From a virus (Duplodnaviria; Caudoviricetes), in IMG/VR virus record IMGVR_UViG_3300037047_000246: a DNA stretch of 64,000 bases. One strand, 5' to 3'. Position 1 is the first letter of the stretch; each line of letters begins with the position of its first letter. Below, in pieces: positions 7,546 to 62,990 of this stretch. Position numbers and translations under genes: made by a program. Under the pieces are notes generated by a model. That model was not told the origin of the DNA and did not search any database. It worked only from the letters and a program-made list of their open reading frames with translations.

Positions 7546-7866
7546 TCACTGAAGACTTTCCAACCGAAGCTTGCCTGCCACGTCGACAACTCTGTCGCCC
7601 GGCGCGACGCGGAATCCGAGCTTTCGGCTCAGATTTTTGGCCCCATCTTCCTTGGCGTGCTGGTCCCAAAAGTCGCTACAAATCGACAGATCTGTGACAA
7701 ATGCCTCTGGATGGCCCACGGCTTCAAGGACTTTGCTGATCCACTTGCGGAGATCGTTGATGCGGCTTGACCGCACGTAGGTCACCTGGATCTCGCCGCT
7801 GCGAATCTTGCGGGCAATTTCAGCTGTCCTGGCGCACGATTCCGAAGTTCTCTTGAAGTCTGTCAT
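7546..7866 (-). CDS. Hypothetical protein
   Basis: Start at MTDFKR overlaps the upstream stop (ATGA coupling). Confidence 0.65.
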   Translation of the reverse strand: MTDFKRTSESCARTAEIARKIRSGEIQVTYVRSSRINDLRKWISKVLEAVGHPEAFVTDLSICSDFWDQHAKEDGAKNLSRKLGFRVAPGDRVVDVAGKLRLESLQ

Positions 7867-8069
7867 GAGTTCATTACCTGCTTGACGCGGTGCACGTCGC
7901 AGTCCTCTGGCATATGCTGATGGTCCGGATGGCGCAGGCCGCCGCAGTGCTCGCACGGCACCCACACCATATCCTTGTATGTTTGCAGATCCATCCAAAT
8001 TTTGCTGCAGACGAGCGTCTGCCGATCTATCGCGGCGAACGCTTCACGCAGCGTCTTGCGCGAAATCAC
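7863..8069 (-). CDS. CxxC/H/C zinc-finger micro-protein with C-terminal tag (VKQVMNS)
   Basis: PCEHCGGLRHPDHQHMPEDCDVHRVKQVMNS*. Confidence 0.75.
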   Translation of the reverse strand: MISRKTLREAFAAIDRQTLVCSKIWMDLQTYKDMVWVPCEHCGGLRHPDHQHMPEDCDVHRVKQVMNS

Positions 8070-8389
8070 TTCTTCACCAAGAAGTCAACATGGATGTAGC
8101 GCAGTGGCATGGCTACGCGCATTATCATCTCGGAATGCATTTCGTCTTGAGGCTCTTCCATGACTTCGCGCACTAGAGCCTCGGCCGGGTCGTCCTCGAC
8201 CATACGGACGCCCTCGAGTATTGCGAGGCCTGGGTCCAAATCGGCCAAGACAACAGCAAGCGCTCTAGCGGGTTGCTTGGCCGACATCTCGCCACCCACC
8301 GCATAGCTTCTGCGCACCGCTTCGTCGATCGCTCCTTTAAGCTCGTCGAGATCGGTCTCGGATGCGCCACACTCGCCAGGTCCCGTCAT
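8066..8389 (-). CDS. Hypothetical protein with an internal tag-like motif (LVREVMEE)
   Basis: Start at MTGPGEC overlaps the upstream stop. Confidence 0.55.
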   Translation of the reverse strand: MTGPGECGASETDLDELKGAIDEAVRRSYAVGGEMSAKQPARALAVVLADLDPGLAILEGVRMVEDDPAEALVREVMEEPQDEMHSEMIMRVAMPLRYIHVDFLVKK

Positions 8390-8781
8390 TGGTTCATCAT
8401 GTCTCCCAAAAGGAAGATCTCGACAGCGTGCAGCAAATCGTCGGCCGACATTCTGTCGAGACATGGCAAGACAACACCAAATCCGGTCTGTTTGATCGCT
8501 ACGTATTTTTGCTCGTACTCGCTCAGGTAATCGTACCGCTGCGCCAATCGAAGTCTGCAACTGTCCAAGCCGACGTCCAGCACGAAGGTAATGGTCCAAC
8601 CTGGTTCTACCACTTGAAATTTAAAAGAGAATGTCTCGTTGACGTGCTTCCTGATTTCTGCCCACACGGTTTCCACCGACTGCCGGCGAAGACAGTTTTC
8701 GCCAACGCCGTCCAAGTCAATGACTACAGACAACGCCCGCTTGACGTCAGACGAATATATGTCGGCTGGTACGGGAGTCAC
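8386..8781 (-). CDS. Hypothetical protein with a variant tag (LGDMMNQ)
   Basis: GTG start overlaps the purB stop (GTGA); the track ORF's 5' extension overlaps purB and is probably not translated. Confidence 0.65.
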   Translation of the reverse strand: MTPVPADIYSSDVKRALSVVIDLDGVGENCLRRQSVETVWAEIRKHVNETFSFKFQVVEPGWTITFVLDVGLDSCRLRLAQRYDYLSEYEQKYVAIKQTGFGVVLPCLDRMSADDLLHAVEIFLLGDMMNQ

Positions 8782-10079
8782 GCGACAATTTCCGGCAATG
8801 CTCTCTGCAAAATTGAATCTGCGTGGCGCAAGACGTAGTTCAAGTCGAAGCAGCGCGCCGCCCCCTCGGGGCCTATGGCGGCGAGCACTTCCGGGTGGGA
8901 AGTTATTCTGTCTCGAAACGGCGCTGGAGACATCGCGCACGACTGCACTATTTTGTAAGCCTGAGATTTGATCATGCCAGACCTCACGAGCGCCAACATC
9001 ACCGACTCGCTGAAGATCAAACCGCACGTCGCCCGCAGATTCAAGTCCATCCGGCCCTCGTCCACTACCAAGTTCTGCACCAGCAGAAGCGCCCTGTCCA
9101 GCATGTGCGCCAAGGCAGCAGTGACGTCCGGAGCTATCATGCGCTCGACCGACGAGTGCGAAATGTCGCGCTCATGCCACAACACGGCGTTTTCCATCGC
9201 CGGCGCAACGGCGGACCGGACGTATCTTGCCAGTCCGCACAGTTGCTCAGAAACTATGGGGTTGCGTTTGTGAGGCATCGCCGAGGAGCCCGTCTGGCCA
9301 CGGGAGAAGCTCTCTCGCACTTCGGCCACCTCGGTGCGGGCCAGATGCCTGAATGCCAGAGCAAGCCTCTCGAGGCCTGTCGCGACCATGCCGCACACCC
9401 AAAACAAGGCGGCGTGCCGGTCGCGGGCCACTACCTGGGTCGGCACCGGCTCCGGCCGCAGCCCAAAGTCGAGCAAGATTTCGCGCTCGATCTCTGGATC
9501 GAGATGCGCGTAGGTACCCACGGCCCCTGAGATAGTACCTGTTTGGATTCCGAGCTGGGCCTGCAGCAGATGGTGCTGCGCCCGCTGCAGCTCCTGGAAG
9601 TGCCCAGCCAGCACCAGCCCGAACGTAGTGGGCTCGGCATGCTGCCCGTGCGTGCGGCCCACCATGGCAGTGCCGGCATGCTCTCGGGCTCGCACGGCCA
9701 GGGCGCACATCACAGCTTCCAACCTCAGATACAGCAGCGCGCACGCCCGATCCAGCAGCACAGCGAGCGCCGTGTCGACCACGTCGCTAGAGGTCAGTCC
9801 GTGGTGCAGCCACCTGGCGGCAGGCCCCAAACTCTCTTCCAGGTGGCGCAGGAACGCCACCACGTCGTGCCGGGTCTCGGCTTCCAGCTCCGCGACGCGG
9901 GCCGGGTCGGGGCGAAAATTCTGCGCAGCCGCCGTCAGAACGTCTGTCGTGCCAGCAGGCACGATGCCATGGTTTTCCATGGCCGCAGCGGCAGACATCT
10001 CGATCCTGAACCAAGTGTCGAGCCTAGTCTGGTCGGACCACAGATCGGCGAATTCTTTAGGTGTATACCTGGGAATCAC
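8778..10079 (-). CDS. purB: Adenylosuccinate lyase
   Basis: Fumarate-lyase signature GSSAMPHKRNP, plus GRTHGQHAEPTT, HHGLTSSDVVDT and LWHERDISHSSVER. GTG start (IPRYT...) after AAGGTGA gives 433 aa. Confidence 0.97.
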   Translation of the reverse strand: MIPRYTPKEFADLWSDQTRLDTWFRIEMSAAAAMENHGIVPAGTTDVLTAAAQNFRPDPARVAELEAETRHDVVAFLRHLEESLGPAARWLHHGLTSSDVVDTALAVLLDRACALLYLRLEAVMCALAVRAREHAGTAMVGRTHGQHAEPTTFGLVLAGHFQELQRAQHHLLQAQLGIQTGTISGAVGTYAHLDPEIEREILLDFGLRPEPVPTQVVARDRHAALFWVCGMVATGLERLALAFRHLARTEVAEVRESFSRGQTGSSAMPHKRNPIVSEQLCGLARYVRSAVAPAMENAVLWHERDISHSSVERMIAPDVTAALAHMLDRALLLVQNLVVDEGRMDLNLRATCGLIFSESVMLALVRSGMIKSQAYKIVQSCAMSPAPFRDRITSHPEVLAAIGPEGAARCFDLNYVLRHADSILQRALPEIVA

Positions 10080-10336: not shown

Positions 10337-10647
10337 CGACCTGGAGGTTTCAGAGGCCGGTTCAAACTGTACGGGAACTCCAGCGGTTTGCCCTCAGGAA
10401 TTTTGCCTGAGCTCCACAAATTTTTGGCTTTTCTGTCCAGGTCCACGTCCAGCCTTTTGCATGCTTCGTCCACCTTGGACTTTTGCGCAGCCGTTAATGG
10501 CTTACCCTGGTCTAGCTTGTCTCGCATGCTAGCAAAAGCTTTCTTCTCCCATTCATCAAGGGCTTCATATTCGAGGATGGTGCTTAGAGTTGCAAGATCG
10601 TCTTTGATGCTCATGCAGTCAAATTTCCATAATAAGCGCCACGGCAA
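10333..10647 (-). CDS. Hypothetical protein
   Basis: Likely start MSIKDDL; protein-like composition. Confidence 0.7.
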   Translation of the reverse strand: MPWRLLWKFDCMSIKDDLATLSTILEYEALDEWEKKAFASMRDKLDQGKPLTAAQKSKVDEACKRLDVDLDRKAKNLWSSGKIPEGKPLEFPYSLNRPLKPPGR

Positions 10648-10960
10648 GATAGTCCGTGATTTGTTTCACAGACTGTCGCCACTGCCGCGCCGCTGAAGAG
10701 TATTCCAGTTCAAGCGTATACCTACGCGCCAGCATGTCTATTTCTTCGATCTTGCCCACCTGGCCGCAAATGGCGTTGTGCACGCCGCAGGCCACGCGAA
10801 ACATGATGCGCTGCACTATCTCTGCGGGCGAATCTGACAGCATCAGCCACATGCCGTCGCATTGGCAGTACAGCGGCCCCACCCCGATTGCAATCTTGAT
10901 TCTCCGGTCGTCCTCGATGTGCAAATATGGCGTCACGTCATAAAGAGGCGGAAAAATCAT
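10619..10960 (-). CDS. Hypothetical protein with tag (VALIMEI)
   Basis: ATGA overlap with the upstream gene. Confidence 0.6.
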   Translation of the reverse strand: MIFPPLYDVTPYLHIEDDRRIKIAIGVGPLYCQCDGMWLMLSDSPAEIVQRIMFRVACGVHNAICGQVGKIEEIDMLARRYTLELEYSSAARQWRQSVKQITDYLAVALIMEI

Positions 10961-11370
10961 GACTCCATCACATCGCGCAGATGCTGATAGTCCCGCGTCA
11001 GCGAAGCCAAGTCCGCATCCATCGTATGGCACGGCGTCGGGGACACTCGGGACCATTTTATTGTCACACAGTCCCCGCTGCAGCCGCGAGTTATGGAAAT
11101 ACTGTACTCGAACACAGCGCCTGAAATTTTCATCTCAGACATCACACTGTCCACCAGCCAGTACTGCCTGTCTTTCTCACTCCTGCCTACATCTTTGGAT
11201 GATAAAGCAGATACTATCTTTGCTCGTATTACATCTACATACTGGACGGTGTAAGCTGGCATGAACTGTTTTACTTGGCCGGACTTCGCATTTGCGCGAA
11301 ACTGTATCAGTTGTGCTGCGAGCACGAGCTGCGCGTTTCGCGGCAGTCTGCCTGATATTGCAAAATACAC
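10957..11370 (-). CDS. Hypothetical protein with tag (LRDVMES); start uncertain
   Basis: Track ORF; ends ...YQHLRDVMES*. Confidence 0.55.
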   Translation of the reverse strand: MYFAISGRLPRNAQLVLAAQLIQFRANAKSGQVKQFMPAYTVQYVDVIRAKIVSALSSKDVGRSEKDRQYWLVDSVMSEMKISGAVFEYSISITRGCSGDCVTIKWSRVSPTPCHTMDADLASLTRDYQHLRDVMES

Positions 11371-15592: not shown

Positions 15593-15976
15593 TCATTCGC
15601 ACATTACATGCAACACGTTGCGCTCGAGCATGGACCGAAGAATGTTGGCAAACCACCTTTTTACGGACTTGGTGTGAAATAGATGAAACGGTCGCTCGTG
15701 TCTGCATGCAGGCAGGAATACTCCATCTGTAGTCCACCCGGCGAAGAGATCGTGTACGCTGGGAGCAGACTCCTCCACACTGACCCACACCGTAGAATGG
15801 CGAATTTTCACAACGACGCGAGCTACTTTGGATCGGTTAAGCTTCAGGTCAAATGTGGTACAAGACTTTTTCCGGATCCCAAAACTGGAATCCGAAGCCA
15901 TATTTTTGACGACGTCGGCAATCTCCGAGCGCAGCTTGCGCAGAGCATGCGATTTTCTAAAGAGTTTTGTGCTCAT
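15593..15976 (-). CDS. Hypothetical protein with tag (VLHVMCE)
   Basis: Track ORF; C-terminal motif. Confidence 0.6.
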   Translation of the reverse strand: MSTKLFRKSHALRKLRSEIADVVKNMASDSSFGIRKKSCTTFDLKLNRSKVARVVVKIRHSTVWVSVEESAPSVHDLFAGWTTDGVFLPACRHERPFHLFHTKSVKRWFANILRSMLERNVLHVMCE

Positions 15977-17260: not shown

Positions 17261-17436
17261 TGCCTTGAGGCCATCCCGCGCTCCTTCTTCTTGCGGCGAG
17301 TCATCAGCCACCACACAAGCTTCGCCACCTGCCTGTCCGACATCCCATCCGTCCGCAGGCGCAGCCATCCCGCCAGCCGGCGCAAACCCACCAGGTTCAG
17401 ACGCTTGGCCTGGTTCAACTCCGATTTGGTCACCAT
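17257..17436 (-). CDS. 59 aa basic micro-protein, below the track cutoff
   Basis: MVTKSELNQAKRLNLVGLRRLAGWLRLRTDGMSDRQVAKLVWWLMTRRKKKERGMASRQ*, coupled at both ends. Confidence 0.6.
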   Translation of the reverse strand: MVTKSELNQAKRLNLVGLRRLAGWLRLRTDGMSDRQVAKLVWWLMTRRKKKERGMASRQ

Positions 17437-17951
17437 CAGGATGCATGAACCCCCGACACGACAACTTCATTGAACACTGTCTGAACATCTTCTGGCGTCA
17501 AGCCTTCGCGCATTGCCTCCGCCATCTGGTCACGCAGCCGGCGGTTAGCTCTGAAGCGAATTTTGGCGTGCAAATCTCTCGAAACGGCATCCCACACAAT
17601 TCCAGCAAAACTGGTCAGCGTGGGCCAGCGGCCGATAAGCTGGTCGCTGGCCAGGCCACTACTCGCCACCCAATCATTGTCAGTCCATGCGAGTGCCAAG
17701 AATTCCAAAATCCGCGCCTTCGGCCTATGCGCGTCGATAATCCCGCCGCTGATTGGCAAATTTCTGCCGCCGCTTGAGCAGCGATATGCGGCGAACTTCA
17801 TCATCACCAACCTAGATTCCAAGTCGAACTCGACGTCATGTACGTCGATACGAGCTTTGGCGCCGCCGTACAGACGATGGACTAGGTTGCACCTGTCGGT
17901 CAGCACCAGGGATGACTCAATGTCATCCAAGACTGCCTTGAGCTTCATCAT
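17436..17951 (-). CDS. Hypothetical protein with helical tag (VSGVHAS)
   Basis: ...AMREGLTPEDVQTVFNEVVVSGVHAS*. Confidence 0.7.
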   Translation of the reverse strand: MMKLKAVLDDIESSLVLTDRCNLVHRLYGGAKARIDVHDVEFDLESRLVMMKFAAYRCSSGGRNLPISGGIIDAHRPKARILEFLALAWTDNDWVASSGLASDQLIGRWPTLTSFAGIVWDAVSRDLHAKIRFRANRRLRDQMAEAMREGLTPEDVQTVFNEVVVSGVHAS

Positions 17952-17965: not shown

Positions 17966-18196
17966 TTATGAATTTTGGACTTCCTCAATTATCAGCTCGT
18001 CCAAGGTCTTCTCAACTATCGGATAGCCTTTATTGACCCAGTTGGCCACAACCTCCAATGTCATTGCAGCAGCATGCTTGCGACACCTGGCCGATGTTCT
18101 TTTACCATCTCTGGACAGCATCTCGAACCACCGAGCAGCCGGCTTCCCGCACACTCCTCCTGCACCATCGCAGACCATCGGGATGCCCTTTTTCAT
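17966..18196 (-). CDS. Zinc-finger family A member with tag (IEEVQNS)
   Basis: VCDGAGGVCGKPAARWF...ARCRKH...EKTLDELIIEEVQNS*. Confidence 0.75.
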   Translation of the reverse strand: MKKGIPMVCDGAGGVCGKPAARWFEMLSRDGKRTSARCRKHAAAMTLEVVANWVNKGYPIVEKTLDELIIEEVQNS

Positions 18197-18394: not shown

Positions 18395-18937
18395 TCATGA
18401 TTCGTGAATGTGCATCACATCCAACATTGAGTCCACTTGTCGAGAAAACTCATCCCATTCTGGCCAATCTCGGTCCGGCACTTTGCTAGGACCCGACAGC
18501 AGCGATCGTTCGGACGGCAAAACTTTGCCAGAGCGCGGATCAACAGCGTCGCCCACTTCGGCACACGCCATATGCCATAGCCAACCCCGTTTTCTCGGAA
18601 TAAGCTTTGACTCAACTATGCCACTGCTGATTACACTGTCGACTATCCAGTCACCGCGCACGCGAGCAAATTGCCAAATGGGCGCTTCAGTTATCTGGTA
18701 GGGACGAAGCGGATCTGCCGACTGCAACCTTAGGAGCGCAGCCGTCTTGTCAGCAAAGGTCATGAAAAAGGTGGCTTCGCTGCCGCAGCATCGGACCAAA
18801 ATTTTCCAACAATCAAACGTCAGCTCGAGCATGGCGGACTGAGTCGAGGCCAAGTTCAAATTTTTGACTACCCTCAAGTTGACATTGGCACCGCCAACTG
18901 TCTCGTAAGCATGGAAGCCGGTTGCCCTTTTCATCAT
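18395..18937 (-). CDS. Hypothetical protein with tag (VMHIHES)
   Basis: 180 aa track ORF. Confidence 0.65.
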   Translation of the reverse strand: MMKRATGFHAYETVGGANVNLRVVKNLNLASTQSAMLELTFDCWKILVRCCGSEATFFMTFADKTAALLRLQSADPLRPYQITEAPIWQFARVRGDWIVDSVISSGIVESKLIPRKRGWLWHMACAEVGDAVDPRSGKVLPSERSLLSGPSKVPDRDWPEWDEFSRQVDSMLDVMHIHES

Positions 18938-19352: not shown

Positions 19353-19604
19353 CTACTCGCTGTGCACTTCAATCACAGCAATGGCGTCCGGGCTAATTTC
19401 CTCCCACAGTATGTGCCGCGGCGGACTGTTTGGACCGCCAAAATGCCAGTTGCCGTCCCACAACCGCGTCATCATGTCAGCGCAGGAGCTGCAGTATTGC
19501 AAAATGTTGCGGTCGTCATGATTTGTGAGAAAGACGCGCGTGGCCTCCAATGCACACTGCGGACGGAAGCACTTCACAACAGATCCTTGGTGCAGCAAAT
19601 GCAC
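19353..19604 (-). CDS. Zinc-finger-like protein with tag (VIEVHSE)
   Basis: ...YCSSC...WEEISPDAIAVIEVHSE*. Confidence 0.65.
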   Translation of the reverse strand: MHLLHQGSVVKCFRPQCALEATRVFLTNHDDRNILQYCSSCADMMTRLWDGNWHFGGPNSPPRHILWEEISPDAIAVIEVHSE

Positions 19605-20609: not shown

Positions 20610-20903
20610 TCACTCCGAGTGCACCAGCGCCACCAAGACCTCATCCCAAGTGAGTCGCAGCGGCCAATAGACCGAATCGTGCTCGGCGCAACGGGGATGA
20701 ATCCAGCCTGTAGAAGAGGACACGCACCAGACCACGGCTGGCGCGTCGCACGGCTGCGCCGGTCCGATGTTCTCCTTGCAAAACTGCAGGCCGAGATCAG
20801 TCAGAATCCCAGAGCTTATTTCTGGCACTGGCGCCTCTTGAGATTTGATTGGCGGACGAGACGAATGGCTCGCGTCACGACTCCTGCACACGCGCCACTT
20901 CAA
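20610..20903 (-). CDS. Zinc-finger family A member with tag (VALVHSE); true start probably internal
   Basis: PCDAPAVVW...PRCAEH...LTWDEVLVALVHSE*. Confidence 0.6.
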   Translation of the reverse strand: MKWRVCRSRDASHSSRPPIKSQEAPVPEISSGILTDLGLQFCKENIGPAQPCDAPAVVWCVSSSTGWIHPRCAEHDSVYWPLRLTWDEVLVALVHSE

Positions 20904-21153
20904 GCCAGGCGTACTCGTCCAAATGCTCCTGGCACATCAGCAGACTTCCGACAAGAGAGTCGTCGGGGGCTTTGCCCATAGCCTCGCTCTCGCACTCGGC
21001 GACCGAGCACAAGCCCTGCTCCCGGTTTCTCGGGCTGAACACGCCCAGACAGGTTGCCATGCGGGAGCTTACATTTCGAGAGCGCTGAGCGGCTTGGCCG
21101 GCGGCGGTACAGTTCTCGCGGAGCCGAACCCAGTCAGGAGCACTCCCTGCCAT
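20875..21153 (-). CDS. Zinc-finger protein with tag (VARVQES), paralogue of 24447..24674
   Basis: GVFSP...CSVAEC...LMCQEHLDEYA shared with the paralogue. Confidence 0.7.
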   Translation of the reverse strand: MAGSAPDWVRLRENCTAAGQAAQRSRNVSSRMATCLGVFSPRNREQGLCSVAECESEAMGKAPDDSLVGSLLMCQEHLDEYAWLEVARVQES

Positions 21154-49008: not shown

Positions 49009-49779
49009 ATGAACAACCGACTGCGCGCCATTTGCGACAAGTTGCCCTGGACGTTCGAAACGTCTGCCGGACGGGACGAGCGGACGAGAGACATCGTGCT
49101 CGGTCTGGGCGATCTTGCCGCTCTCGGGCGCCGGGCGCAGAAAGCGCTCGACGAGCTCGAGCGCTCAGGCAGCTTCAGGGGCCTAGCCCCCTACCTGAAG
49201 ACCAACGAAGGGCGCATTGACCAGCTGAGGTTGGACGCCGCGTCCATGCCGCCTGCTGCAGAGCTCAGCCCAGCGCAGCTGCGCTGGGTGCGGCGCCTGA
49301 AGCTCGAGTGCGTGCGCATCGAACCGAGTTCGGCTTCCACGAGATGGGTAGCTCAACTGTGCGGAGTAGGCTACGATTGGGAGCCCCGCCGCAGCCGATT
49401 CGCAATTGTGCGGACGCAAGTGCAAGTGGCTGCGGCAGTAATTGCCCCATCGCGCAACCACTGCGATTCGTACGCCATAGGGTCTTTCGGTCCAGATCAT
49501 TTGACTCTGGACATGTCGGACGACAGCGCGCCGGAACTGGACCCTGCAAAGCTCGCTCAATCTGCAGCCGAACGGCTGGTGACCTGCTGCGATCGCGGCT
49601 TTCGCTCGGATATGGCCAATGTGCGGGTAGCCAGGAAGCAGGTGCAAGCGAAGCTTGTCGAATCCGGCAAGTGCCTCGAGTGGACGGAGATGTGCCGGGA
49701 AATGATCGCGAGCGCCAAGCGCGAAGCGATGGCGGGCGAGTATGGACAGCAAGCCGTGAAGCACGTGATGGAGACTTGA
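49009..49779 (+). CDS. Hypothetical protein with tag (VKHVMET)
   Basis: 256 aa, divergent from 48341..48877. Confidence 0.75.
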   Translation: MNNRLRAICDKLPWTFETSAGRDERTRDIVLGLGDLAALGRRAQKALDELERSGSFRGLAPYLKTNEGRIDQLRLDAASMPPAAELSPAQLRWVRRLKLECVRIEPSSASTRWVAQLCGVGYDWEPRRSRFAIVRTQVQVAAAVIAPSRNHCDSYAIGSFGPDHLTLDMSDDSAPELDPAKLAQSAAERLVTCCDRGFRSDMANVRVARKQVQAKLVESGKCLEWTEMCREMIASAKREAMAGEYGQQAVKHVMET

Positions 49780-49846: not shown

Positions 49847-50188
49847 ATGGCGAGAAAAGGTTCCGAAGGAGAAGCGGTCGGCACTGTGTTGGACGTGATG
49901 GAAATCACCGGCGTGCTTCGCGGCAAGTCGTTCAGCATCACCGGACATCTGGGTTTGCCGCGCGACCAGGTGGTGGCCATCATTGAAAGGGCCGGGGGCA
50001 CGTTCCACAAGACTCCGACATACGGCACGACGTACCTGGTGACGAACCTCGATTGGAACGAGGGGTCCACTGTGGCGTCGGGCACGTCGCGCAAGTTGAT
50101 CAAGGCCCGCGAGATGGGCATCAAGATCTTGTCGGAAAAGCAGCTGCACGACATGATCACGGAGCTGGCCGAAGCGGACAGCAAATGA
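49847..50188 (+). CDS. Stand-alone BRCT-domain protein (DNA ligase LigA C-terminal type)
   Basis: LRGKSFSITGHL...RDQVVAIIERAGG...TTYLVT...SRKLIKAREMGIKILSE. Confidence 0.9.
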   Translation: MARKGSEGEAVGTVLDVMEITGVLRGKSFSITGHLGLPRDQVVAIIERAGGTFHKTPTYGTTYLVTNLDWNEGSTVASGTSRKLIKAREMGIKILSEKQLHDMITELAEADSK

Positions 50189-50376
50189 AGCGCTTCCCCG
50201 GCATGCGGTGCGAATTCAAGTCGTGCCAAAGAGAGGTGGTGCAGTTTTTGCAGACTTGGGCGGACACCCTGGTGTGCAGGTGCGAAGTGCACAGCATACC
50301 TTTCCTAAATATGCGCCGAGACATCAAAGAGATTGACCTGCAGCAAGCTCAAGTGCTAGACGTGCACAGCAAGTGA
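50185..50376 (+). CDS. Zinc-finger family A member with tag (VLDVHSK)
   Basis: RCEFKSC...CRCEVH...EIDLQQAQVLDVHSK*. Confidence 0.75.
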   Translation: MKRFPGMRCEFKSCQREVVQFLQTWADTLVCRCEVHSIPFLNMRRDIKEIDLQQAQVLDVHSK

Positions 50377-50386: not shown

Positions 50387-51133
50387 ATGGTTGGCAGATT
50401 TGTGGTGGACAACAACTCTGATCCGGCGGAAGCAAAGCAAGTTTTGCGCCAGCTCCGCCGCACAGTCCGGTTGGGCAAGATAGCGGAGCGCGCTCTGAAG
50501 TCTTTGGAGGAGAGAGGATCTTTCGACAGCAGGGTCGTCGTGCTGCACAGGGAATATGGCTACTACTGCGCTGCTGTGCGAAAGTTGTCTGCTTACAGAC
50601 CCTTCAGTCGGGACGACGTGCCCGGTTGGCCTGAGCTGACTGTGGTGTGCGGCAAGAAGACCATAGGGTCCCACGGCGGCTCCCGATTCGACCAAGTGTC
50701 TTTGTGGCTGCTTGGCACAGGGTTTGCGCCGCGCCGCCATATCAAGCCGGTCGACCAGTGGGAGCAGGTGACCCTGCGCAAAGGCGTGCCGGGAGCGAGG
50801 CTCGGCACATGTCGCATGAAGGCGAACGGCGAAGTGACGTTTGTCGTGTCGTCGTCTCTAGAAGAGACGACGAACTGCGTGATACGCATCAGCCGGAATC
50901 CAGGCGCTTCTGCCAAGTCCTTGGCAGAAGCGCAGCGCTTTGCGCGCGTCGTGGCGGCATGCTTGGTGGATGTCGGCCGCCCCCACGAACTGGAGCTGTT
51001 CAAAAAGTGTCCGCAGTACTTGACGGACCTGCGGCGCGCTGCGCCTGACTGGCTCATTGAAGACGGACACGTCCACCGGATGTTCAACGACATTCTGGAC
51101 GCTGTTGCAGTTGTTCGAGTGATGGAGGCGTGA
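50387..51133 (+). CDS. Hypothetical protein with tag (VVRVMEA)
   Basis: 248 aa track ORF with a GAGGGTGA SD. Confidence 0.75.
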   Translation: MVGRFVVDNNSDPAEAKQVLRQLRRTVRLGKIAERALKSLEERGSFDSRVVVLHREYGYYCAAVRKLSAYRPFSRDDVPGWPELTVVCGKKTIGSHGGSRFDQVSLWLLGTGFAPRRHIKPVDQWEQVTLRKGVPGARLGTCRMKANGEVTFVVSSSLEETTNCVIRISRNPGASAKSLAEAQRFARVVAACLVDVGRPHELELFKKCPQYLTDLRRAAPDWLIEDGHVHRMFNDILDAVAVVRVMEA

Positions 51134-51515: not shown

Positions 51516-51517
51516 AT

Positions 51518-51690: not shown

Positions 51691-52056
51691 TCACATTCCG
51701 TGGATGCTTTTGACAAGATCTTTGCGCAAAAACTGTACAATGAGAGATGCAGCGCGTCTCGGGGATGCGGTTTGGTGTAGCGCGAACTCTGTCGTGAAAA
51801 AAGCCGGAGTGCCCGTCACGACAGTGGCCGTGACCGTAGAGTGGCGGAGCTGGGACTTGAAGAATGACATTTCGGCCACGCGGCATCCGCCAAAGCTCAC
51901 CGACTCCCGGTAAAAGAATACGCCTGCTGCGCGCGATTCGAGCGGCGTCATGGCGAGCTCGTAACCTTCTTTCTTGAGTCTGGCCGCAACGACAGCATGC
52001 GCTTCTCTGGCGAGAATCTCGAAAGCTCTGCTGCGATTGCTAGACAACGCTCTCAA
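51691..52056 (-). CDS. Hypothetical protein
   Basis: Coupled ORF. Confidence 0.55.
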   Translation of the reverse strand: MRALSSNRSRAFEILAREAHAVVAARLKKEGYELAMTPLESRAAGVFFYRESVSFGGCRVAEMSFFKSQLRHSTVTATVVTGTPAFFTTEFALHQTASPRRAASLIVQFLRKDLVKSIHGM

Positions 52057-53569: not shown

Positions 53570-54292
53570 CTATTCGTCTTGCACCGCTTCCACCATGACT
53601 TCGTTCCAGGCCTCTGCAATTGCAGCACTAACAGCCTGTTCAAGGCTACGTCGGTCTGTTTCACGAAGCACGCCAAGTTTCGTCATCATCTTCTTCGTCA
53701 CACTTTTCAAATGTTCGGCAATGGCTGCAGATATAGCAAGGCCTCTGAGTTCAGACCATTTGCGAAGAATTTCCTGCATCCGCCGCACGCCTATCACTTC
53801 CTTGCAAGCCGCATCTATCGCTTCATTAAATCTGCCCCCTTATCATGATCGTCAAACCACCATTGCTGCGACAAGCAACTCTCTAAAATCTTTCCATGAC
53901 GCCATTTTTCCTCTGCCACAGTCCGCACCGCACGAACAACGTCTTTCTCGTCAATCGAGTACCAGCTAAGCTCCCTGCTGTTGTGTCTCAAAATGTTCAT
54001 GTGTGGCTCGTCGTCAAGTTTGACTGTGATCCCCCCATGCGTCAATGTTGGCAGACACGGCTTCATACCGAAGCCGCAGGTCACCCTCCTTGGCACTCTT
54101 CAGGACGCTAGCCAAGTTCCTTTTATAAGACGCCTTATTTGCAGCTGCCTTTGCAGCCTCCATCTGTTCAACTCGCACCGAGCGAACTTCATCATTCATC
54201 TTTTTCATCAGACGTTTGACTGTCGAAGCAGGGAGGCCTTTTTGTTTGCACAACCGTTCCAATTCTTGCGTCAAACACATATCGTCTCTCAT
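53570..54292 (-). pseudogene. Probably one tagged protein (ends VEAVQDE) broken into three ORFs at G-homopolymers
   Basis: Track ORFs 54014..54292, 53815..54096 and 53570..53797 join at the G6 (54031-54036) and G5 (53835-53839) runs. Confidence 0.55.
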
Positions 54293-54465
54293 GAATCTTG
54301 CACCATCTGCACCGCGATTTCGCGAACTCGGTCACTTATCTCTTCCGGCGACAGGCCGAGCTTCAACAGAGTTTCCACGCCTGTACGAAGGGACTGTTCC
54401 GCAAGCTCTTTGGCGAGTTTCAGATTCCAATCAGGATCTCCGCCTTGTTTGTCACCTTTCGACAT
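54289..54465 (-). CDS. 58 aa helical micro-protein with tag (VQMVQDS)
   Basis: MSKGDK...LLKLGLSPEEISDRVREIAVQMVQDS*; GGAGTGA SD. Confidence 0.7.
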   Translation of the reverse strand: MSKGDKQGGDPDWNLKLAKELAEQSLRTGVETLLKLGLSPEEISDRVREIAVQMVQDS

Positions 54466-54497: not shown

Positions 54498-54749
54498 TCA
54501 GTCTGTCTGCACGCGGTGCACTATTCACTCTTCGAACGAAATTTCCGATATGCCAAGCAGTGCAAATTGTGGCGAGTGGTACTCGCAGCGCGCCAGCGTT
54601 TCCCCGTCTGCGCGAAGGAAGAAGTGCGCTGCGAATTTTTCGCACTGTTTTAATGGTGAAGGGCTGAGCCCAACATACACGAGACAAAATGCTTCGCACT
54701 GCACGCGGCCAAGAGCTGTCGCCCGGTCACACATCCTGCACTGCCTCAA
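54498..54749 (-). CDS. Zinc-finger family A member with an in-frame TGA at 54525-54527 just before the tag
   Basis: QCEKFAAHFF...ARCEYH...SEISFEE*IVHRVQTD*. Confidence 0.7.
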
Positions 54750-55176
54750 CCAGCACCTCTTTGCACATAACGGCGAGCTCCTGCTCCAGGGAGTCCAACG
54801 TCTCGCCGCGCCTGACCAGGTCGACCAGGAGGGGTCGAAGCTTGCGGATGCACGCTCGGACTCGGATCTTGGTGTTGGTCAACTCGCGTTTCGGCAACCC
54901 AGCGAACCCTTGCGCAATCGCTGCCTCGAGCCGGTCCAGGTCTTCGGCCGGCAGCTCGCAGCACGAAATGTGTCCCACGGATGCCATCGCCGATCTCGTA
55001 GAGGCTAAAAACCAGCTTCCTTCTTCATGCTGCACGATGTGCGAATGCTCATCGCGATTAAATTGACCTTCGTAGTATCGAAGTTGTTTTGCTGCTCCAT
55101 TGTAGCTTACCGAGATCATGACTCTTGGTAAGCTCCTTTTCAGGGCAGACGTCCGCGGCTTCCCAATTTCAATCAC
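54727..55176 (-). CDS. Hypothetical protein with helical tag (VEAVQDV)
   Basis: ...DLVRRGETLDSLEQELAVMCKEVLVEAVQDV*. Confidence 0.7.
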   Translation of the reverse strand: MIEIGKPRTSALKRSLPRVMISVSYNGAAKQLRYYEGQFNRDEHSHIVQHEEGSWFLASTRSAMASVGHISCCELPAEDLDRLEAAIAQGFAGLPKRELTNTKIRVRACIRKLRPLLVDLVRRGETLDSLEQELAVMCKEVLVEAVQDV

Positions 55177-55534: not shown

Positions 55535-57115
55535 CTAAGGCCGATCATGCCGCAAAGGCGCCACACGGCCAAACGCGGGCTTGAATCCGGTGTTGTTCCG
55601 GGTCAGCACCCACACCACGTCGATCCCGCGCGGGCGCAGCTCCAAGGGCACCACGCCGCAGTCGCCGTCAGTCAGGACGATGATGACGTCGAATTCGGTC
55701 CCCAGATGCTTCGGGAAATCCCGAAAAAACTCATCGAATACTGTTCCTCCGCGACCCACCACTTTGGTGCGTTTCAGGTCGGTGGCCTTCTCGACCTTGT
55801 GGACCCCGGCCCAATGTGGTTGGGCGTCGCAGGGGATGACGTACCCTTCGGTATTGCTGCCCAGCACCTGCAGCTGAGAAATCCCGTAAGCCATGTCGTC
55901 GTCGCCCATGGATCCGGAAGTGTCCAGCATCGCCAGCCACCTGGGCTTGTGGGTGTAGCGCTTCGGCAGGTACTGCCGGGGCGTGGTTTGCAGGTACCGG
56001 CGGCGCAGCCGATGCCAATCGTTGTTGAGGCCCGCGTCCTGCACCTTCTTGAGCAGAGCCGACCTCACGATGTCGGTGAACTTCAGTGTCGGCTTCTTGA
56101 GCTCGCCGAGCATTCCCTCGATCTCGGAGGGCACGGTCCCCCTCATCTGGGCGGATTGCTCGGCTGCGCGCATCAGGTCCGCTTGAACCTCTTGCTGCGT
56201 CATGTCTGTCTCGATGTGCGAGTCCATGCCGCCCAATCTGTCGAAGGGGCTGCCGCATGTGTCGCAATGATCTCCGCCGCATCCGCCGCACCCCTGCCCT
56301 GGATTTTGACCGGGCTGGCCCTGGCCGGGCTGGCCCTGACCGGACTGCTTCTGGCCCTGGCCGGGCTGGCCCTGACCGGACTGCTTCTTCTGCCCCTTGG
56401 GGCCCATCGACAGGCTGCCGCAAGACGGGCACTTGCGCGGCGACTTGTTCCAGTGGTCGATGATTTCGTCGTAGATGCTCTCGGGCGACCGGCCGTGCAG
56501 CGATTTGTCGGCGAAGCAGAACTCGTCCTTGGGCAGCTCCTTGGTGCCGTCGATGTAGGCCAGAAACTCTCCGAGCAACATCGGCTGGCCGATGTTGCCG
56601 CCGAACAGCGTCCCCTTGCGGCCGGTCTTCTCCTGGTCGGACAGGATGCACGCGTTGACCACGTAGTCGACAGCGATGTTCCAGACCTTGGATTGCTTGT
56701 CGCGGCCCCGCTTCGGGTGGAAGAACACCACGTGGTAGCCTTCGTGCTGCATCACCGTTGCGATCTCGTCCGGGGTCAGCGTCGCCAGGAACACCGGGTT
56801 CCAGTAGTACTTGCGGCCATCGGTGGCGGCCGTGTCGACGGTCTGGCCGCCGAGCTTGATCACAAGCTCGTGGCACTTCGGGGCGGACAGGGCGAACAAA
56901 AACGGGTTGCCTCCGTTTTCAGGCTTCTTGAACAGCCTGGTCATGCAGGACGTGACCTTCTCCTGCAAATCGTGCAGGCGCACGCCCTTGAACGCCTTGC
57001 GCATCTTCTCGAGCTTGTCTTTGGGGAACTTGTCGTCCTTCTCGAGAGCGTCCAGCCAAAGGACGGCCTCCTTCTCCATCACGTCGCGCGGGTCGGACAA
57101 ACGGGAACCGATCAT
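55535..57115 (-). CDS. HExxH metallopeptidase-like plus VWA-domain protein (DUF2201-type MoxR partner)
   Basis: TAATDG, VMQHEGYHVV (HExxH), WNIAVDYVVN, MIDAS motif LDTSGSMG, GGGT and VLTDG; Q/G repeat linker. Confidence 0.93.
   Translation of the reverse strand: MIGSRLSDPRDVMEKEAVLWLDALEKDDKFPKDKLEKMRKAFKGVRLHDLQEKVTSCMTRLFKKPENGGNPFLFALSAPKCHELVIKLGGQTVDTAATDGRKYYWNPVFLATLTPDEIATVMQHEGYHVVFFHPKRGRDKQSKVWNIAVDYVVNACILSDQEKTGRKGTLFGGNIGQPMLLGEFLAYIDGTKELPKDEFCFADKSLHGRSPESIYDEIIDHWNKSPRKCPSCGSLSMGPKGQKKQSGQGQPGQGQKQSGQGQPGQGQPGQNPGQGCGGCGGDHCDTCGSPFDRLGGMDSHIETDMTQQEVQADLMRAAEQSAQMRGTVPSEIEGMLGELKKPTLKFTDIVRSALLKKVQDAGLNNDWHRLRRRYLQTTPRQYLPKRYTHKPRWLAMLDTSGSMGDDDMAYGISQLQVLGSNTEGYVIPCDAQPHWAGVHKVEKATDLKRTKVVGRGGTVFDEFFRDFPKHLGTEFDVIIVLTDGDCGVVPLELRPRGIDVVWVLTRNNTGFKPAFGRVAPLRHDRP
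56315..56392 (-). repeat. Q/G-rich coding tandem repeat in the VWA-protein linker
   Basis: KQSGQGQPGQG twice, followed by QPGQ. Confidence 0.8.
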
Positions 57116-58062: not shown

Positions 58063-58674
58063 CTAAACTTTCATGACTCCTTCCACGAAGCACTCGTCCA
58101 CGATGCGGTGCAGGTCTTCCCTTGTCGCGCCCTTGGCGATGGATGCTTTGAGCGGACCCATCAGGTCTGCCATGTGCAGCTCGAGCGGCGAGACCGATGT
58201 CCTGAGCTTGGCCCGCACATTGGCGGCGAGCACGTCGATTTGCGGGTGGTATTCCAGAGTCGGGTCCTCCCGCAAGACCTTTTCGACAGCCTTCATCATT
58301 CGGCAAGCCGCGTCGCTGCTCCAACTGTGCACGGTGTTGCCTTTGTTCGGCCCGTGCTCCAGCACTCGCCCTTTGCCGAACATCTCGGCGCAGTGCTTCG
58401 GCCAGCCGGCATACAGCAGCGACGCCACCAGCAGCGCCTCCAGGCGCGGCCTGGGGTCGTTTGGATGCCGTGGCGCTAGCGAAAGGACGTTCGTCGACAG
58501 CAAAACCCCGTTTCGCTGCGGATATACGTGCACCACGAACGAGCGGCCTCCTGCGCCCTTCATGGTCAGGCAGTCAGCTTCGAGAAAGTCCCAGGCGGCA
58601 GACCCTTCAATCATTTCGCGGACCGCGGCCTCCGCAGCTTTTCGCTGAGCCACTGTCCGCCCAAGTTCGCTCAT
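58063..58674 (-). CDS. Hypothetical protein with helical tag (VEGVMKV)
   Basis: ...SIAKGATREDLHRIVDECFVEGVMKV*; GGAGGTGA SD. Confidence 0.75.
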   Translation of the reverse strand: MSELGRTVAQRKAAEAAVREMIEGSAAWDFLEADCLTMKGAGGRSFVVHVYPQRNGVLLSTNVLSLAPRHPNDPRPRLEALLVASLLYAGWPKHCAEMFGKGRVLEHGPNKGNTVHSWSSDAACRMMKAVEKVLREDPTLEYHPQIDVLAANVRAKLRTSVSPLELHMADLMGPLKASIAKGATREDLHRIVDECFVEGVMKV

Positions 58675-60658: not shown

Positions 60659-61765
60659 TCAGTCGTTGAGGCTCTTGCGGATCTTGACGTAGACAGACAT
60701 CAGCTCCTGCACCCGGGTGAGCTTCCAGTCCTGGATGATCTTCATCGACAGGACCGACTTGACCGCGCCGATCGCGAACTCGGACGGGATGTCGTTCATC
60801 CACCCGAAGACGTTCTTGGTGATCTTCATGATCTTTTCGTCCTGCTTGGCCCGATCGGTGCCGGACGGTGCTTCGCGGCCGAGCTTGGCGATTTCGCCGC
60901 AGCCCGCGATGGCGCAAACCATGATGCGGTCCACGGTCATGCCGTCGATGTTGGGCTTGACGCCTTCCCGGACCAGCTTGTTGATGATGGGTTCGACATG
61001 CCGGTAGTGGTCGAGCCATACTCGAAACTTGACCGCTGCCGCCTGCCCGACGCGCCCAGCCACCAGCATCGTCTGGAAGTCCACAGACTCCTTCGCCGCC
61101 AGGTTCAGATCGCGAGCGGCCTGGGTCCAGGCGCGGGGCGAGGGGTGGCTGTAGGCGGTGTCGTCGCCCTCGGGCGGCGGCATCAGCAGGTATTCCTGGT
61201 TCTTGCTCAGGAAGCCCACGACCAGGCCGTTGATGCCGGAGTCCGTGGCCCACTGCTGCCAGGGGTCGAAGCTGGACTCCACCTTGTAGACCATGCAGCG
61301 GTTGGTCAGGGCGTGCGACACCGGGAGGCTGAATGCGCCCTCCTCGGGCAAGTTGCCCGTGGCGATGATGCTGTGGATGTCGAGCGCCCGGCCGTTGATG
61401 CTCCGGAACTGGAACAGCTCCAGCATCGGGTTCTGCAGCTCCGGCTTGGCCTTGTCGATCTCGTCCACGATGAGGACCACGCCCTGGGGCCGCGTGCCCT
61501 TGATGGGCAAGAACTTGGGGGTGGCGTACTCCGAGAGCTTGGTCTCGGAGTCGATCATCGGCAGGCCCATCAGGTCGGGGGCCTCGAGCACGGACAGGTT
61601 CAGGTAGACCTGCTCCCGGCCCTTGGACTGCGCGGCCTGTATTGCGCACTCCGTCTTCCCCACTCCAGCGTTGCCGAAGATGATGACGTTCCCGCCCGCC
61701 TCGATCGAGAAGCGGTAGATGGTCATCATTGTGGCCTGGTCGATGCTGTGTACGCCGGTAAGCAT
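60659..61765 (-). CDS. MoxR-family AAA+ ATPase
   Basis: Walker A GNAGVGKT, Walker B LIVDEID, sensor ATGN, ALTNR and PSPRAW. Confidence 0.93.
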   Translation of the reverse strand: MLTGVHSIDQATMMTIYRFSIEAGGNVIIFGNAGVGKTECAIQAAQSKGREQVYLNLSVLEAPDLMGLPMIDSETKLSEYATPKFLPIKGTRPQGVVLIVDEIDKAKPELQNPMLELFQFRSINGRALDIHSIIATGNLPEEGAFSLPVSHALTNRCMVYKVESSFDPWQQWATDSGINGLVVGFLSKNQEYLLMPPPEGDDTAYSHPSPRAWTQAARDLNLAAKESVDFQTMLVAGRVGQAAAVKFRVWLDHYRHVEPIINKLVREGVKPNIDGMTVDRIMVCAIAGCGEIAKLGREAPSGTDRAKQDEKIMKITKNVFGWMNDIPSEFAIGAVKSVLSMKIIQDWKLTRVQELMSVYVKIRKSLND

Positions 61766-61871
61766 TCTGTCACCTCATTGGGTTGGTTGTCTGTCGGGGC
61801 TCCATCGCCCCATCCGCCGATACGCGGCACGGCGGCGCGCCTCCGCCACCTTTTGAGCAGTACGGTACCAC

Positions 61872-62597
61872 ATGAAACCGAGATGGTGCAGCGAACATGC
61901 GATGGAGTTCAAACAGTTTGGGCCTCGAAGCTTCCAGTGCCCCGAGTGTTACAATCGGAAGAGGCGAGCGCGCTACGCTGTCCGCAAGGACAGTTTGCGC
62001 GCGGTCCAAACAAGGGACCGCGCTCGGCGCGCGGCTTCTGGCAAAACGCGAGCTTGGCGCGTGGCTTACCACGAGAAGCTGAAGTGCGAAACCTTCTCGC
62101 ACTACGGCAGCAAGTGTCCTTGCGGCGAAACCAGGCTGAGTCGCCTGGCGCTCGATCATGTTCGAGACGACGGGCATGCGCACCGTGTCAAGACTCGCCT
62201 GAGCGGCTGCAAATTGTACTCCTGGCTCAGGATGCACAACTGGCCTGGAGGCTACAAGGTACTTTGTCACAATTGCAACATTCTGAAGCGCGCTGCTCGG
62301 TATGGCAGCCGTGAGCAAACACGTCGCGCTGCCATTAGACTTGCGCGAGAAGCGCGAGTCAAGCTGCAAGTCATCACACATTACGGCGAGAGTAGAGCGG
62401 CTTGCGTGCGCTGCGGATACGACAGGCTCGAAGCCCTCACCATCGATCACGTTGGCAATGATGGACACCTGACTCGCGGTCAAATGTCGCCTGGATACCA
62501 ATTTTATGCTGCGTTGGCCCGGCAGGGATATCCGGACGGATACCAGACGCTGTGCTTTTGCTGCAACATGGAAAAGGAAATATTGCTGCATAGATGA
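61872..62597 (+). mobile_element. Endonuclease-like protein with two tandem HNH domains
   Basis: HYG...C..CG...LALDHV..DG...LCHNCN and HYG...CVRCG...LTIDHV..DG...LCFCCN. Confidence 0.85.
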
Positions 62598-62747
62598 GGG
62601 TATGCGGCGGGCGACTGCGCTGCCGCTGCCTTTTGAGCGTAATCTTTGGGCTGCTCCGGCCTTTGATCGCGCGACGCGCGCGATCCGCTCTTCGAAGAGG
62701 ACGGGAAGTCCGGCCGCCCGCCGCGTACCGAACGGTGAGGTGATCTC

Positions 62748-62990
62748 GTGAGATTGCAAGGACACGATTGGGAGCGCATGGAATGGGCGGGGTTCACGGA
62801 CGCCAACCCGTGGGATCGCGACGCGCAGCGCCAGTTTCTGTACATCTGGAGATGTAACGACTGCAAGGCCGTGGTCAAAGCCACCGAATCGTGCGGAATG
62901 CCGGGCCGGTTGGTTCTCGTGTGCGCCGGGCTGCCTGCCGGGTTGACTTGCGAGCAGTCGGCAGCGCTGAGAGACGTTCATTTGAGCTGA
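62748..62990 (+). CDS. CxxC...C micro-protein with tag (LRDVHLS)
   Basis: GHDW...WRCNDC...LTCEQSAALRDVHLS*; GAGGTGA SD. Confidence 0.75.
   Translation: MRLQGHDWERMEWAGFTDANPWDRDAQRQFLYIWRCNDCKAVVKATESCGMPGRLVLVCAGLPAGLTCEQSAALRDVHLS

Follow-up and report, generated by a model that had tools for sequence, protein, structure and literature searches.

The subject of this report is a 64,000-nucleotide stretch of DNA (hereafter the window) from a virus of the Caudoviricetes (Duplodnaviria), deposited as IMG/VR record IMGVR_UViG_3300037047_000246, in which about one third of the genes (43 of the 133 called) end in a common peptide of the form [V/I/L]-x-x-[V/I]-[M/H/Q]-x-x-stop. This tail, here called the tag, proves to be a true short linear motif at the very C-terminus of the encoded proteins. 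It is carried by 15–23% of all genes in five related genomes of CasPhi-bearing huge phages, and the set of residues permitted at its third position from the end is a property of the phage lineage that is common to unrelated proteins and independent of base composition. These observations make it probable that one shared trans-acting reader exists. A MoxR-family AAA+ ATPase and a metallopeptidase-VWA protein, both encoded within the window, are proposed here as its tentative candidates.

A strict regular expression, [VILC]xx[VI][HQM]xx-stop, finds 43 open reading frames (ORFs) of at least 20 amino acids in the window; the tagged genes (40 on the minus and three on the plus strand) encode proteins of 37–256 amino acids. 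A preliminary description of the same DNA had spoken of about 50 such ORFs. The pattern it described is confirmed and nearly all of its examples were recovered, the slight overcount being due to the inclusion of a few short or overlapping ORFs. Over the whole genome 74 of 498 genes are tagged, while only about 1.2 would be expected from the rate at which the pattern occurs inside proteins. The register is exact: 74 genes have two residues after [HQM], whereas offsets of 0, 1 and 3–7 give 0–3 genes each, and other registers in the tagged genomes yield 0–6 matches each. A 12-residue position weight matrix (PWM), trained on the four other tagged genomes alone and applied with a terminal cut-off of at least 8 bits, gives 77 terminal matches in this genome vs 0.15 expected; its 30 internal matches in 101,508 positions are no excess if compared to the 23–24 of tag-free outgroups. 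The enrichment of terminal over internal positions is roughly 60-fold with the regular expression and 500-fold with the PWM, so the strictly C-terminal position claimed earlier stands. At the other end of the proteins no signal was seen beyond residue 2.

The extended consensus reads D(-11) E(-10) x x V(-7) x x V(-4) [M/Q/H](-3) [E/D/S/N](-2) [S/E/A](-1). Glutamate occupies position -10 in 32 and aspartate position -11 in 21 of 84 tags, which bears out the acidic segment that had been proposed upstream, and an acidic residue at -2 is found in about 50–70% of tags only. The conserved positions show the i, i+3, i+4 spacing of a helix. A helical terminal segment is also predicted in one well-modelled family, represented by g0409 (38396-38929, minus strand; 177 amino acids, ending IRLVQEA), which is present in all five tagged genomes: the AlphaFold2 model (117 sequences, predicted local distance difference test score (pLDDT) 86) comprises a beta-rich body and a terminal helix at residues 164–176, i.e. 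positions -14 to -2. Of 120 database homologs of this family, 117 stop at exactly this position and have a tag-like tail. Conservation in the tag columns is similar to that in the body, for whose fold no clear match was found in the PDB. Strong tag-like modules occur also inside a few proteins. An ATP-dependent DNA ligase (41485-42726, minus strand) contains ...VVRQVMGV ending at residue 94, before its catalytic domain, and g0351 (bases 292528-293508 of the record) contains an internal ...IAKEVMET at residue 163, while its ortholog in the relative G001 has the tag at the C-terminus. By their sequence, these internal modules look like formerly tagged genes that were fused to downstream ORFs.

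The window corresponds to the minus strand of bases 297,348-361,347 in a record of 362,524 bp with direct terminal repeats at its ends, 57% GC and a CasPhi-like gene, labelled G000 in the following. A purpose-built codon-model caller found 498 genes that cover 91% of it, 133 of them inside the window. Among the products are a major head protein of 295 amino acids (phrog_2522), a Cas12-type nuclease with a Cas12f1-like TNB domain, ribonucleotide reductase, RecA, clamp-loader subunits, several sigma factors and an actin homolog. A DNA-level search among deposited phages gave no close match. The nearest deposited capsid proteins belong to an uncultured 485-kb phage (75% identity), to Tunturi_5, a phage of Tunturiibacter (45%), and to Bacillus phage G (36%). 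The acidobacterial phage Tunturi_5 is the nearest cultured relative by capsid. In IMG/VR, 481 contigs bear a related capsid gene. Six related huge-phage genomes were retrieved via conserved genes for comparison with G000. In four of them, as in G000, the tag is present and the capsid protein is at least 89% identical across these five genomes, of which the four relatives have 40%, 50%, 50% and 51% GC. In the two others (capsid 75% identical, 55% and 59.5% GC), which serve as composition-matched negative controls, it was found in none of 637 and none of 604 genes. The major head protein itself (183928-184815 of the record, minus strand) is 96% identical between G000 and G001, where typical orthologs reach about 60%, and 89–93% identical over genomes spanning 40–57% GC.

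The tagged genes number 74 of 498 in G000, 92 of 570 in G001, 112 of 581 in G003, 72 of 564 in G004 and 150 of 664 in G005, and the tag is found as well on contigs of 62–70% GC. The 243 reciprocal best hits between G000 and G001 agree in tag status in 236 cases (23 with the tag on both sides, 213 without it on either) and disagree in seven (Fisher p = 3e-25 for concordance). In the 23 pairs tagged on both sides the bodies are only 32–63% identical, and the tag positions are kept with M, H and Q swapped freely, a change from M to H or Q needing at least two nucleotide substitutions. Most tagged genes have no ortholog in the other genome of this pair (55 of 83 in G000 and 74 of 99 in G001).

Selection acts on the peptide rather than on the DNA. 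Synonymous codons at Val-7, Ile, His-3, Gln-3 and Glu-2 follow genome-wide usage (p 0.15–0.8), and therefore the preliminary description was right to read the codon variation as peptide-level selection. A chance translation of a DNA or RNA signal, be it the ribosome-binding site of the next gene, a terminator or a recombination site, could draw on two deviations from this rule, a mild GTG excess at Val-4 (p = 0.04) and an excess of TCA at Ser-1 (12 vs 3.0 expected). The latter is the sole strong one and arises because TCATGA provides a stop/start overlap with the next gene. This explanation is effectively refuted by the remaining evidence: the sequence 3' of tagged stops is not conserved, the peptide is kept over 40%–70% GC by different codons, and of 88 matches of the regular expression over all ORFs 74 lie in called genes, with no enrichment in the non-gene ORFs. 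The distance from stop to next start is equal for tagged and untagged genes, which rules out a reading as translational coupling or as a ribosome-binding site. A link to one particular stop codon or release factor was also rejected. Tagged genes use all three stop codons in nearly the same proportions as untagged genes, and the base after the stop shows no difference in four of five genomes (G005, p = 0.024), so such differences are small and inconsistent between genomes. A compositional artefact is ruled out by the tag-free outgroups of similar GC. The preliminary description had held that a lack of terminal enrichment, an equal frequency in other GC-rich phages or conservation at the nucleotide level would speak against it; what was found is terminal enrichment, the absence of the tag from two related huge phages of comparable GC, and a sequence conserved as amino acids over 40–70% GC.

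The carriers of the tag are mostly small, soluble, fast-evolving proteins without known domains. Their median size is 90–110 amino acids with a range from 34 to 433, and membrane-like segments are rarer among them than in untagged small proteins (12 of 542 vs 113 of 1854; p = 1.6e-4). Comparison of the bodies by blastp divides the 542 tagged proteins of the five genomes into 460 families with 403 singletons, an upper bound since blastp misses diverged paralogs. One such case is a C...C-x-x-H zinc-ribbon-like family of five small tagged proteins in the window (31516-31731, 37373-37573, 37662-37856, 44145-44342 and 50185-50376), which is apparent in a MAFFT alignment and to which blastp is blind. 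The earlier statement that the bodies are unrelated is thus mostly right, as carriers of unrelated folds are recognized by Pfam, and overstated insofar as diverged paralog families had been missed. Among the 150 longest tagged proteins Pfam detects ankyrin repeats (three proteins), HEAT/Arm repeats, GIY-YIG, RecB-like, RuvC and DHHA1 domains and others, and about 90% of these 150 remain without a match. For ten larger tagged proteins, as for most of the clade-specific proteins of unknown function mentioned below, neither Pfam nor PHROGs returned anything. The tagged genes are concentrated in two accessory regions adjacent to the termini of the genome, with few of them in the structural and replication core; none of the identified structural or assembly proteins bears the tag.

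The most informative position is -3, which was surveyed with the frame [VIL]xx[VI]-X-[EDNSQ]-[SATE]-stop, X being free. Of the 303 tags so defined in the five genomes, 289 have M, H or Q at this place, and leucine and isoleucine occur twice each. G003 and G005 have almost only methionine, while G000, G001 and G004 use all three. Metagenome contigs that bear homologs of a tagged family gave access to further lineages. All six tags on two of these contigs (65% and 70% GC) have L or I and sit on different proteins, whereas other contigs of 65% GC have M in seven of seven. Contigs of 62% GC have Q or H, and one of 52% GC has M in 13 tags and L in four. The identical all-ORF procedure applied to tag-free genomes gives 0–3 matches per 400 kb. 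Although the leucine-lineage sample is small (six tags on two contigs), it differs from the five genomes with Fisher p = 1.8e-10 and from the methionine-only lineage of the same GC with p = 6e-4. A lineage-specific set of residues shared by unrelated proteins fits a single reader with a lineage-specific pocket, and the lineage-wide switch of a key residue is likewise what the one shared receptor of the preliminary description would lead one to expect. We therefore consider such a reader likely.

For its identity a clade-specific screen was used, which selects G000 genes that occur in all four tagged relatives and have no tblastn match in either untagged genome. It yields 37 genes, 34 of them untagged, including sigma factors, nucleotide-metabolism enzymes, many proteins of unknown function and a MoxR/VWA pair. 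The larger member of this pair, g0372 (55535-57115, minus strand), is an untagged protein of 526 amino acids classified from Pfam, homologs and a model as a metallopeptidase-VWA protein. Pfam assigns to it the zincin-like metallopeptidase domain DUF2201_N (86.7 bits) and the VWA domain DUF2201 (41.5 bits, cut-off 26.4), both over their cut-offs. Its sequence contains HEGYH, a further histidine, a CxxC...CxxC zinc ribbon and the DTSGS of a metal-ion-dependent adhesion site (MIDAS). Across 112 homologs HExxH, D398, S400, S402 and D483 are invariant and T458 is conserved, and the additional histidine and the ribbon cysteines likewise vary little or not at all. In the predicted structure (pLDDT 89) the modelled VWA domain matches CMG2, CLCA1 and integrin I domains. 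The label "HNH endonuclease" that phrog_1314 attaches to this protein is also found on RefSeq entries of N4-like phages, e.g. Vibrio phage VBP47 (NC_020848, 9604-10767), and judged by the sequences it looks like a propagated mis-annotation of DUF2201 metallopeptidase-VWA proteins. The second member, g0368 (60659-61765, minus strand), is an untagged MoxR-family AAA+ ATPase of 368 amino acids according to Pfam, PHROGs and Atlas, with weak Pfam matches to AAA_2, AAA_5 and AAA_3, a match to phrog_1297 (ATPase, 3.5e-49) and Atlas look-alike clusters named MoxR/AAA_5. It is 82% identical to its G001 ortholog and among the seven most conserved of the 243 orthologs. In whole-record searches both genes are found in five of five tagged and none of two untagged genomes, and both sit among tagged genes in the accessory arrays. 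A peptidase of the ClpP, Lon or FtsH type is not encoded by the phage.

In the mechanism proposed here the tag would be a docking handle, a free C-terminus shown to one trans-acting reader, by which the phage could handle its accessory proteome as a class for timed removal, trimming or remodelling. The reader would be the MoxR ATPase working with the metallopeptidase-VWA protein. In CMG2, CLCA1 and integrin I domains the MIDAS metal binds a ligand carboxylate; in this model the metal of the phage VWA domain would clamp the terminal carboxylate and/or the acidic residue at -2, with the V/V/M face of the helix lying in a groove beside the MIDAS. The HExxH domain would then cut and the MoxR ring would release or unfold the client. 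A similar division of labour was proposed for vWA-MoxR systems, in which an extended peptide is bound at the MIDAS site of the vWA partner and the client is freed by the MoxR ring (PMC7159879), and in NorQ/NorD a finger of the VWA protein enters the MoxR pore (PMC13036017). The assignment of the reader to this particular pair is tentative and rather doubtful. The explanation as a whole, a docking handle read by one reader with the MoxR/VWA pair as the most likely one, falls somewhat short of being probable. Its boldest form seems fairly improbable: a private proteasome-like system in which the MoxR ring and a VWA-metallopeptidase adaptor would read a fifth of the phage's own proteome with a MIDAS-carboxylate clamp and a small hydrophobic pocket, and would clear, trim or activate the accessory arsenal for host takeover and anti-defence as one class, the key residue of the tag and the pocket of the reader co-evolving into an orthogonal degron code for each lineage.

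Several points weigh against the proposed role of the pair. Its link with the tag is one phyletic contrast (five vs two genomes, Fisher p = 0.048) and effectively one evolutionary event, and 32 further untagged genes, many of unknown function, share the same phyletic pattern. The outgroup is distant, and some of the absences may reflect divergence rather than loss. The N4-like Vibrio phage VBP47 has a distant pair and no shared tag, in the huge phage G016 a 28%-identical homolog occurs and the 20 kb read are free of tags, and the apparent tag of the Sinorhizobium phage Phosso is a single diverged paralog family. MoxR ATPases are, to our knowledge, not known as processive unfoldases. With an acidic residue at -2 in only about half to two thirds of the tags or slightly more, the MIDAS contact would have to lean mainly on the terminal carboxylate. 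Furthermore, some of the tagged bodies taken as unrelated are diverged paralogs. A complex prediction of g0372 (with Mg and Zn) and the tagged 37-residue protein g0412, performed without controls, scored 0.00 and speaks neither for nor against. A second VWA protein, g0199 (784 amino acids; 178485-180839 of the record, minus strand), was rejected as reader as it is present in the untagged G007 and absent from the fully read tagged G004. Its N-terminal match to VWA is weak and stays under the Pfam cut-offs, and two tagged genes lie directly downstream.

Some other phages that came into view with the pair deserve a short description. In the cultured phage Phosso (PV764938; the parts concerned are 2.9–20 kb and about 175 kb) at least 13 proteins of 70–104 amino acids, encoded as a tandem family, end ...[D/H]-A-M-x-F-K-L-x-x-x in one exact register. 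Elsewhere in its genome there are adjacent genes for MoxR and a DUF2201 metallopeptidase-VWA protein. These 13 proteins, with ends of the form [ML]xF[KR][LV]xxx, were rejected as an independent tag since shared internal motifs mark them as one paralog family. No tag was seen in the region inspected of the uncultured phage LR756500, where gene calls are poor, or in the first 50 kb of Vibrio phage KVP40. In VBP47 the single-strand DNA-binding protein and a nearby 123-residue protein (NC_020848, 25728-26459 and 26961-27332) both end ...SLFG, possibly a docking tail of the type known from single-strand DNA-binding proteins.

Other functions of the tag have to be weighed against a docking handle for a phage-encoded reader. 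It could be a capsid-targeting or packaging signal that docks on the scaffold or the inner capsid, so that its carriers are packaged in the large head and injected with the DNA. The internal proteins of phage T4 offer the same picture of a conserved short terminal peptide on unrelated, fast-evolving proteins, and the cargo peptides of encapsulins, which bind an HK97-fold shell, are C-terminal as well. The small size and solubility of the tagged proteins and the unusual conservation of the head protein (96% between G000 and G001, 89–93% in the tagged clade, 75% to the outgroup) would also suit this function. It is nevertheless unlikely, as the tagged genes stand in accessory arrays outside the structural module, no protease site was seen beside the tag, no identified structural or assembly protein is tagged, and up to about 150 cargo species per genome would lie far above any known packaged set. 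Just as small is the chance that a host machine (ClpXP, ClpAP, Lon, FtsH, a tail-specific protease) or another conserved host hub recognizes the tag as a degron or stabiliser, which would set the lifetime of early or accessory proteins. Bacterial C-degrons such as ssrA-LAA and that of MuA are recognized as a free C-terminus at a fixed register like the one seen here, the phage has no ClpP, Lon or FtsH peptidase of its own, and the rarity of membrane-like segments fits cytosolic handling. However, known C-degrons end non-polar and the tag ends [E/D]-[S/A/E]; it is kept over 40–70% GC and presumably different hosts; position -3 changes by phage lineage, which is easier to reconcile with a phage-encoded reader; and related outgroup phages are without any tag.

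Equally low in probability is the absence of any dedicated reader, the tag being a capping helix or self-association module that either stems from a hyper-diverged superfamily or was repeatedly recruited as a stabiliser. The helix of the one good model with its i, i+3, i+4 spacing is what such a module would show, and mutual binding of tags could produce coordinated lineage switches as well. Diverged paralogs do exist among the carriers, and the Phosso C-terminus belongs to one family. But the carriers have clearly unrelated folds and range from 34 to 433 amino acids, the tag was gained or lost on conserved orthologs (the seven discordant pairs), and neither the exact distance of two residues from the end (74 vs 0–3) nor the internal absence is needed by a helix. 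A cis-acting nascent peptide that modulates the ribosome at termination, e.g. by pausing or release, would explain the exact register to the stop codon, and a span of about 11 residues fits the upper exit tunnel, in which arrest peptides act. This is very unlikely. Arrest peptides are normally leaders, whereas here about 100 functional proteins would end in them, a -3 residue that differs by lineage is hard to square with a nearly invariant ribosome, and the tagged genes resemble untagged ones in their proportions of the three stop codons, in the following base (apart from G005) and in the distance to the next gene.

Terminal tags that are read by one partner are already a known kind of signal; the present motif and its scale are undescribed in the literature searched, and searches of the open literature on huge and jumbo phages turned up neither this motif nor a C-terminal tag spread over a whole proteome. 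The closest parallel is found in Kaur, Burroughs, Iyer and Aravind 2020 (PMC7159879, citing Haft and Basu 2011), according to which some vWA-MoxR systems are accompanied by a zincin peptidase and by small, rapidly diverging proteins in which nothing but a C-terminal motif (of the FxSxx-COOH, RxD or acidic type) is conserved. Here too a MoxR protein, a vWA domain with MIDAS, a HExxH peptidase and variable proteins with a fixed-register C-terminal motif occur together. In contrast with these systems the motif is V-x-x-V-[M/H/Q]-E-S, with FxSxx, RxD and the acidic run absent, and the peptidase is fused to the vWA protein. Instead of one or few precursors in a bacterial conflict operon there are 70–150 phage accessory carriers per genome, up to 433 amino acids long and with folds of their own. 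No radical-SAM/SPASM maturase and no AP-ATPase or VMAP partner was seen among the annotated proteins, though no search was aimed at them. The same two-gene architecture in large phages was described by Iyer et al. 2021 (PMC7824862) for 'group 2.2' jumbo phages, which hold MoxR and a vWA co-chaperone with N-terminal metallopeptidase and for which a role in virion assembly or structural protein processing was proposed. No client tag is named there, whereas here the pair sits in accessory arrays together with a proteome-wide candidate client mark.

Among the better known signals the T4 capsid-targeting sequence resembles the tag as a short terminal peptide on hypervariable, otherwise unrelated accessory proteins that is read by one phage machine; it differs in being N-terminal, cut by the prohead protease and restricted to a handful of proteins, while the tag is C-terminal and present on 15–23% of genes. 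With encapsulin cargo peptides it shares the C-terminal position and differs in that the tagged genes are at least 100 kb away from the major head gene, in accessory arrays. The exact distance from a free C-terminus recalls ssrA-LAA/ClpX, the SspB XB tail, HbYX, EEVD/TPR and PTS1, each with one reader shared by many clients. Unlike all of these, the tag has polar or acidic last two residues, a V-x-x-V-[M/H/Q] core and a key residue that varies between lineages, and it is gene-encoded on a large share of a viral proteome. Its end is mostly [E/D/N/S]-[S/E/A] and not LAA-like non-polar as in the ssrA/ClpX degron, and the S, E or A found at -1 in most tags is not the hydrophobic residue of ligands of PDZ domains and tail-specific proteases.

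The tagged genes of the window are given here with the length of the product and the terminal heptapeptide; they were recognized by the strict regular expression together with the gene caller unless stated otherwise, and lie on the minus strand unless marked as plus. The first encodes 68 amino acids ending VKQVMNS (7863-8069; 20.7 bits with the PWM), followed by one of 145 amino acids ending VALIMEI (10619-11056). A probable tagged gene of 137 amino acids ending LRDVMES (10957-11370), found with the regular expression, was dropped by the gene caller because it overlaps the preceding one by 100 nucleotides. Further along lie genes for 127 amino acids ending VLHVMCE (15593-15976), 171 ending VSGVHAS (17436-17951), 76 ending IEEVQNS (17966-18196), 180 ending VMHIHES (18395-18937), 83 ending VIEVHSE (19353-19604), 72 ending VALVHSE (20610-20828) and 61 ending VARVQES (20875-21060). 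A protein of 220 amino acids with the end ITNIMSG (22612-23274) precedes a weak case of 46 amino acids ending TADVMEQ (23302-23442), which reaches 4.4 bits with the PWM and matches a loose regular expression only. Next come VKAVMEE (68 amino acids, 24244-24450), VELVQES (61, 24447-24632), CEKIHEL (85, 25691-25948) and AAEVHSL (72, 26417-26635; gene caller), a second weak case with AAQVHWE (77, 29779-30012; PWM 4.7 bits), and VLLVHSS (71, 31516-31731), the latter from the zinc-ribbon-like family.

The central part of the window comprises proteins of 102 amino acids ending VAEVHDS (33049-33357), 94 ending VWEVQNS (33354-33638), 200 ending TKQVQDS (34558-35160; gene caller), 94 ending VYKVQSQ (35964-36248), 154 ending VELVHES (36411-36875) and 140 ending VEIIHNE (36941-37363). 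Two members of the zinc-ribbon paralog family, with 66 amino acids ending LWLVHNS (37373-37573) and 64 ending VWLVHQS (37662-37856), flank g0412, the smallest protein of this group, with 37 amino acids ending VEAVQES (37570-37683). Beyond g0409 a protein of 63 amino acids ending VAEVHDA (39183-39374) is followed by its paralog of 64 ending VAQVHGA (39367-39561) and by one of 191 ending VADVQIS (39583-40158). The remaining genes encode CWLVHQV (65 amino acids, 44145-44342), VGGVMKS (78, 44928-45164), CRKVMDL (142, 47885-48313) and IMEVHEI (178, 48341-48877) ends; on the plus strand VKHVMET (256, 49009-49779), VLDVHSK (63, 50185-50376) and VVRVMEA (248, 50387-51133), the last being present in all five tagged genomes; and again on the minus strand VKSIHGM (121, 51691-52056), VEAVQDE (72, 53570-53788), VQMVQDS (58, 54289-54465), VEAVQDV (130, 54727-55119) and VEGVMKV (203, 58063-58674). 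The outermost one, with 70 amino acids ending LRDVHLS (62778-62990), is on the plus strand.

Besides the tag some further features were recorded. The VWA-peptidase gene and several other conserved genes are preceded by a GGAGGTGA ribosome-binding site with a promoter-like element, CGCGTACC, about 8–12 nucleotides 5' of it. In the window this element is found upstream of 55535-57115, 60659-61765, 41485-42726, 35190-35894 and others, the MoxR gene having a variant (GCGTATC) of the CGCGTACC element that is placed further upstream. Of its gene-proximal copies 12 of 13 lie at 280–340 kb of the genome, and genome-wide enrichment is absent. A promoter of the extracytoplasmic-function type, GGAA-N15-18-CGTAA, is not supported (3–6 matches vs 2–9 expected). 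A GC-rich hairpin, GCGCCGGCGCAAGGCGCCG(C/T)GCGCC, occurs in near-identical form just 3' of the stops of 38396-38929 (minus) and 49009-49779 (plus) and probably is a repeated terminator. Finally, the actin homolog (138201-139223 of the record, minus strand) is of the Volactin type (Pfam PF25216, 2e-71) and conserved in all seven huge-phage genomes compared.

For the biology of these phages the tag means that hundreds of orphan ORFs are marked as real, translated proteins of one functional class. If one reader serves 70–150 proteins per genome, this would be the largest client set that we know of for a protein-addressing signal of a bacterial virus, and it would open an easy way into the 'dark matter' genes that huge phages carry. 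Should the MoxR/VWA-metallopeptidase pair indeed read the tag, such pairs, which are common in large phages and had no known job, would gain a concrete set of clients. A portable short tag with lineage variants and its reader could also be put to use in bacteria for the orthogonal, targeted handling of proteins. As the clade is widespread and the source of the CasPhi genome editors, its biology is of broader interest.

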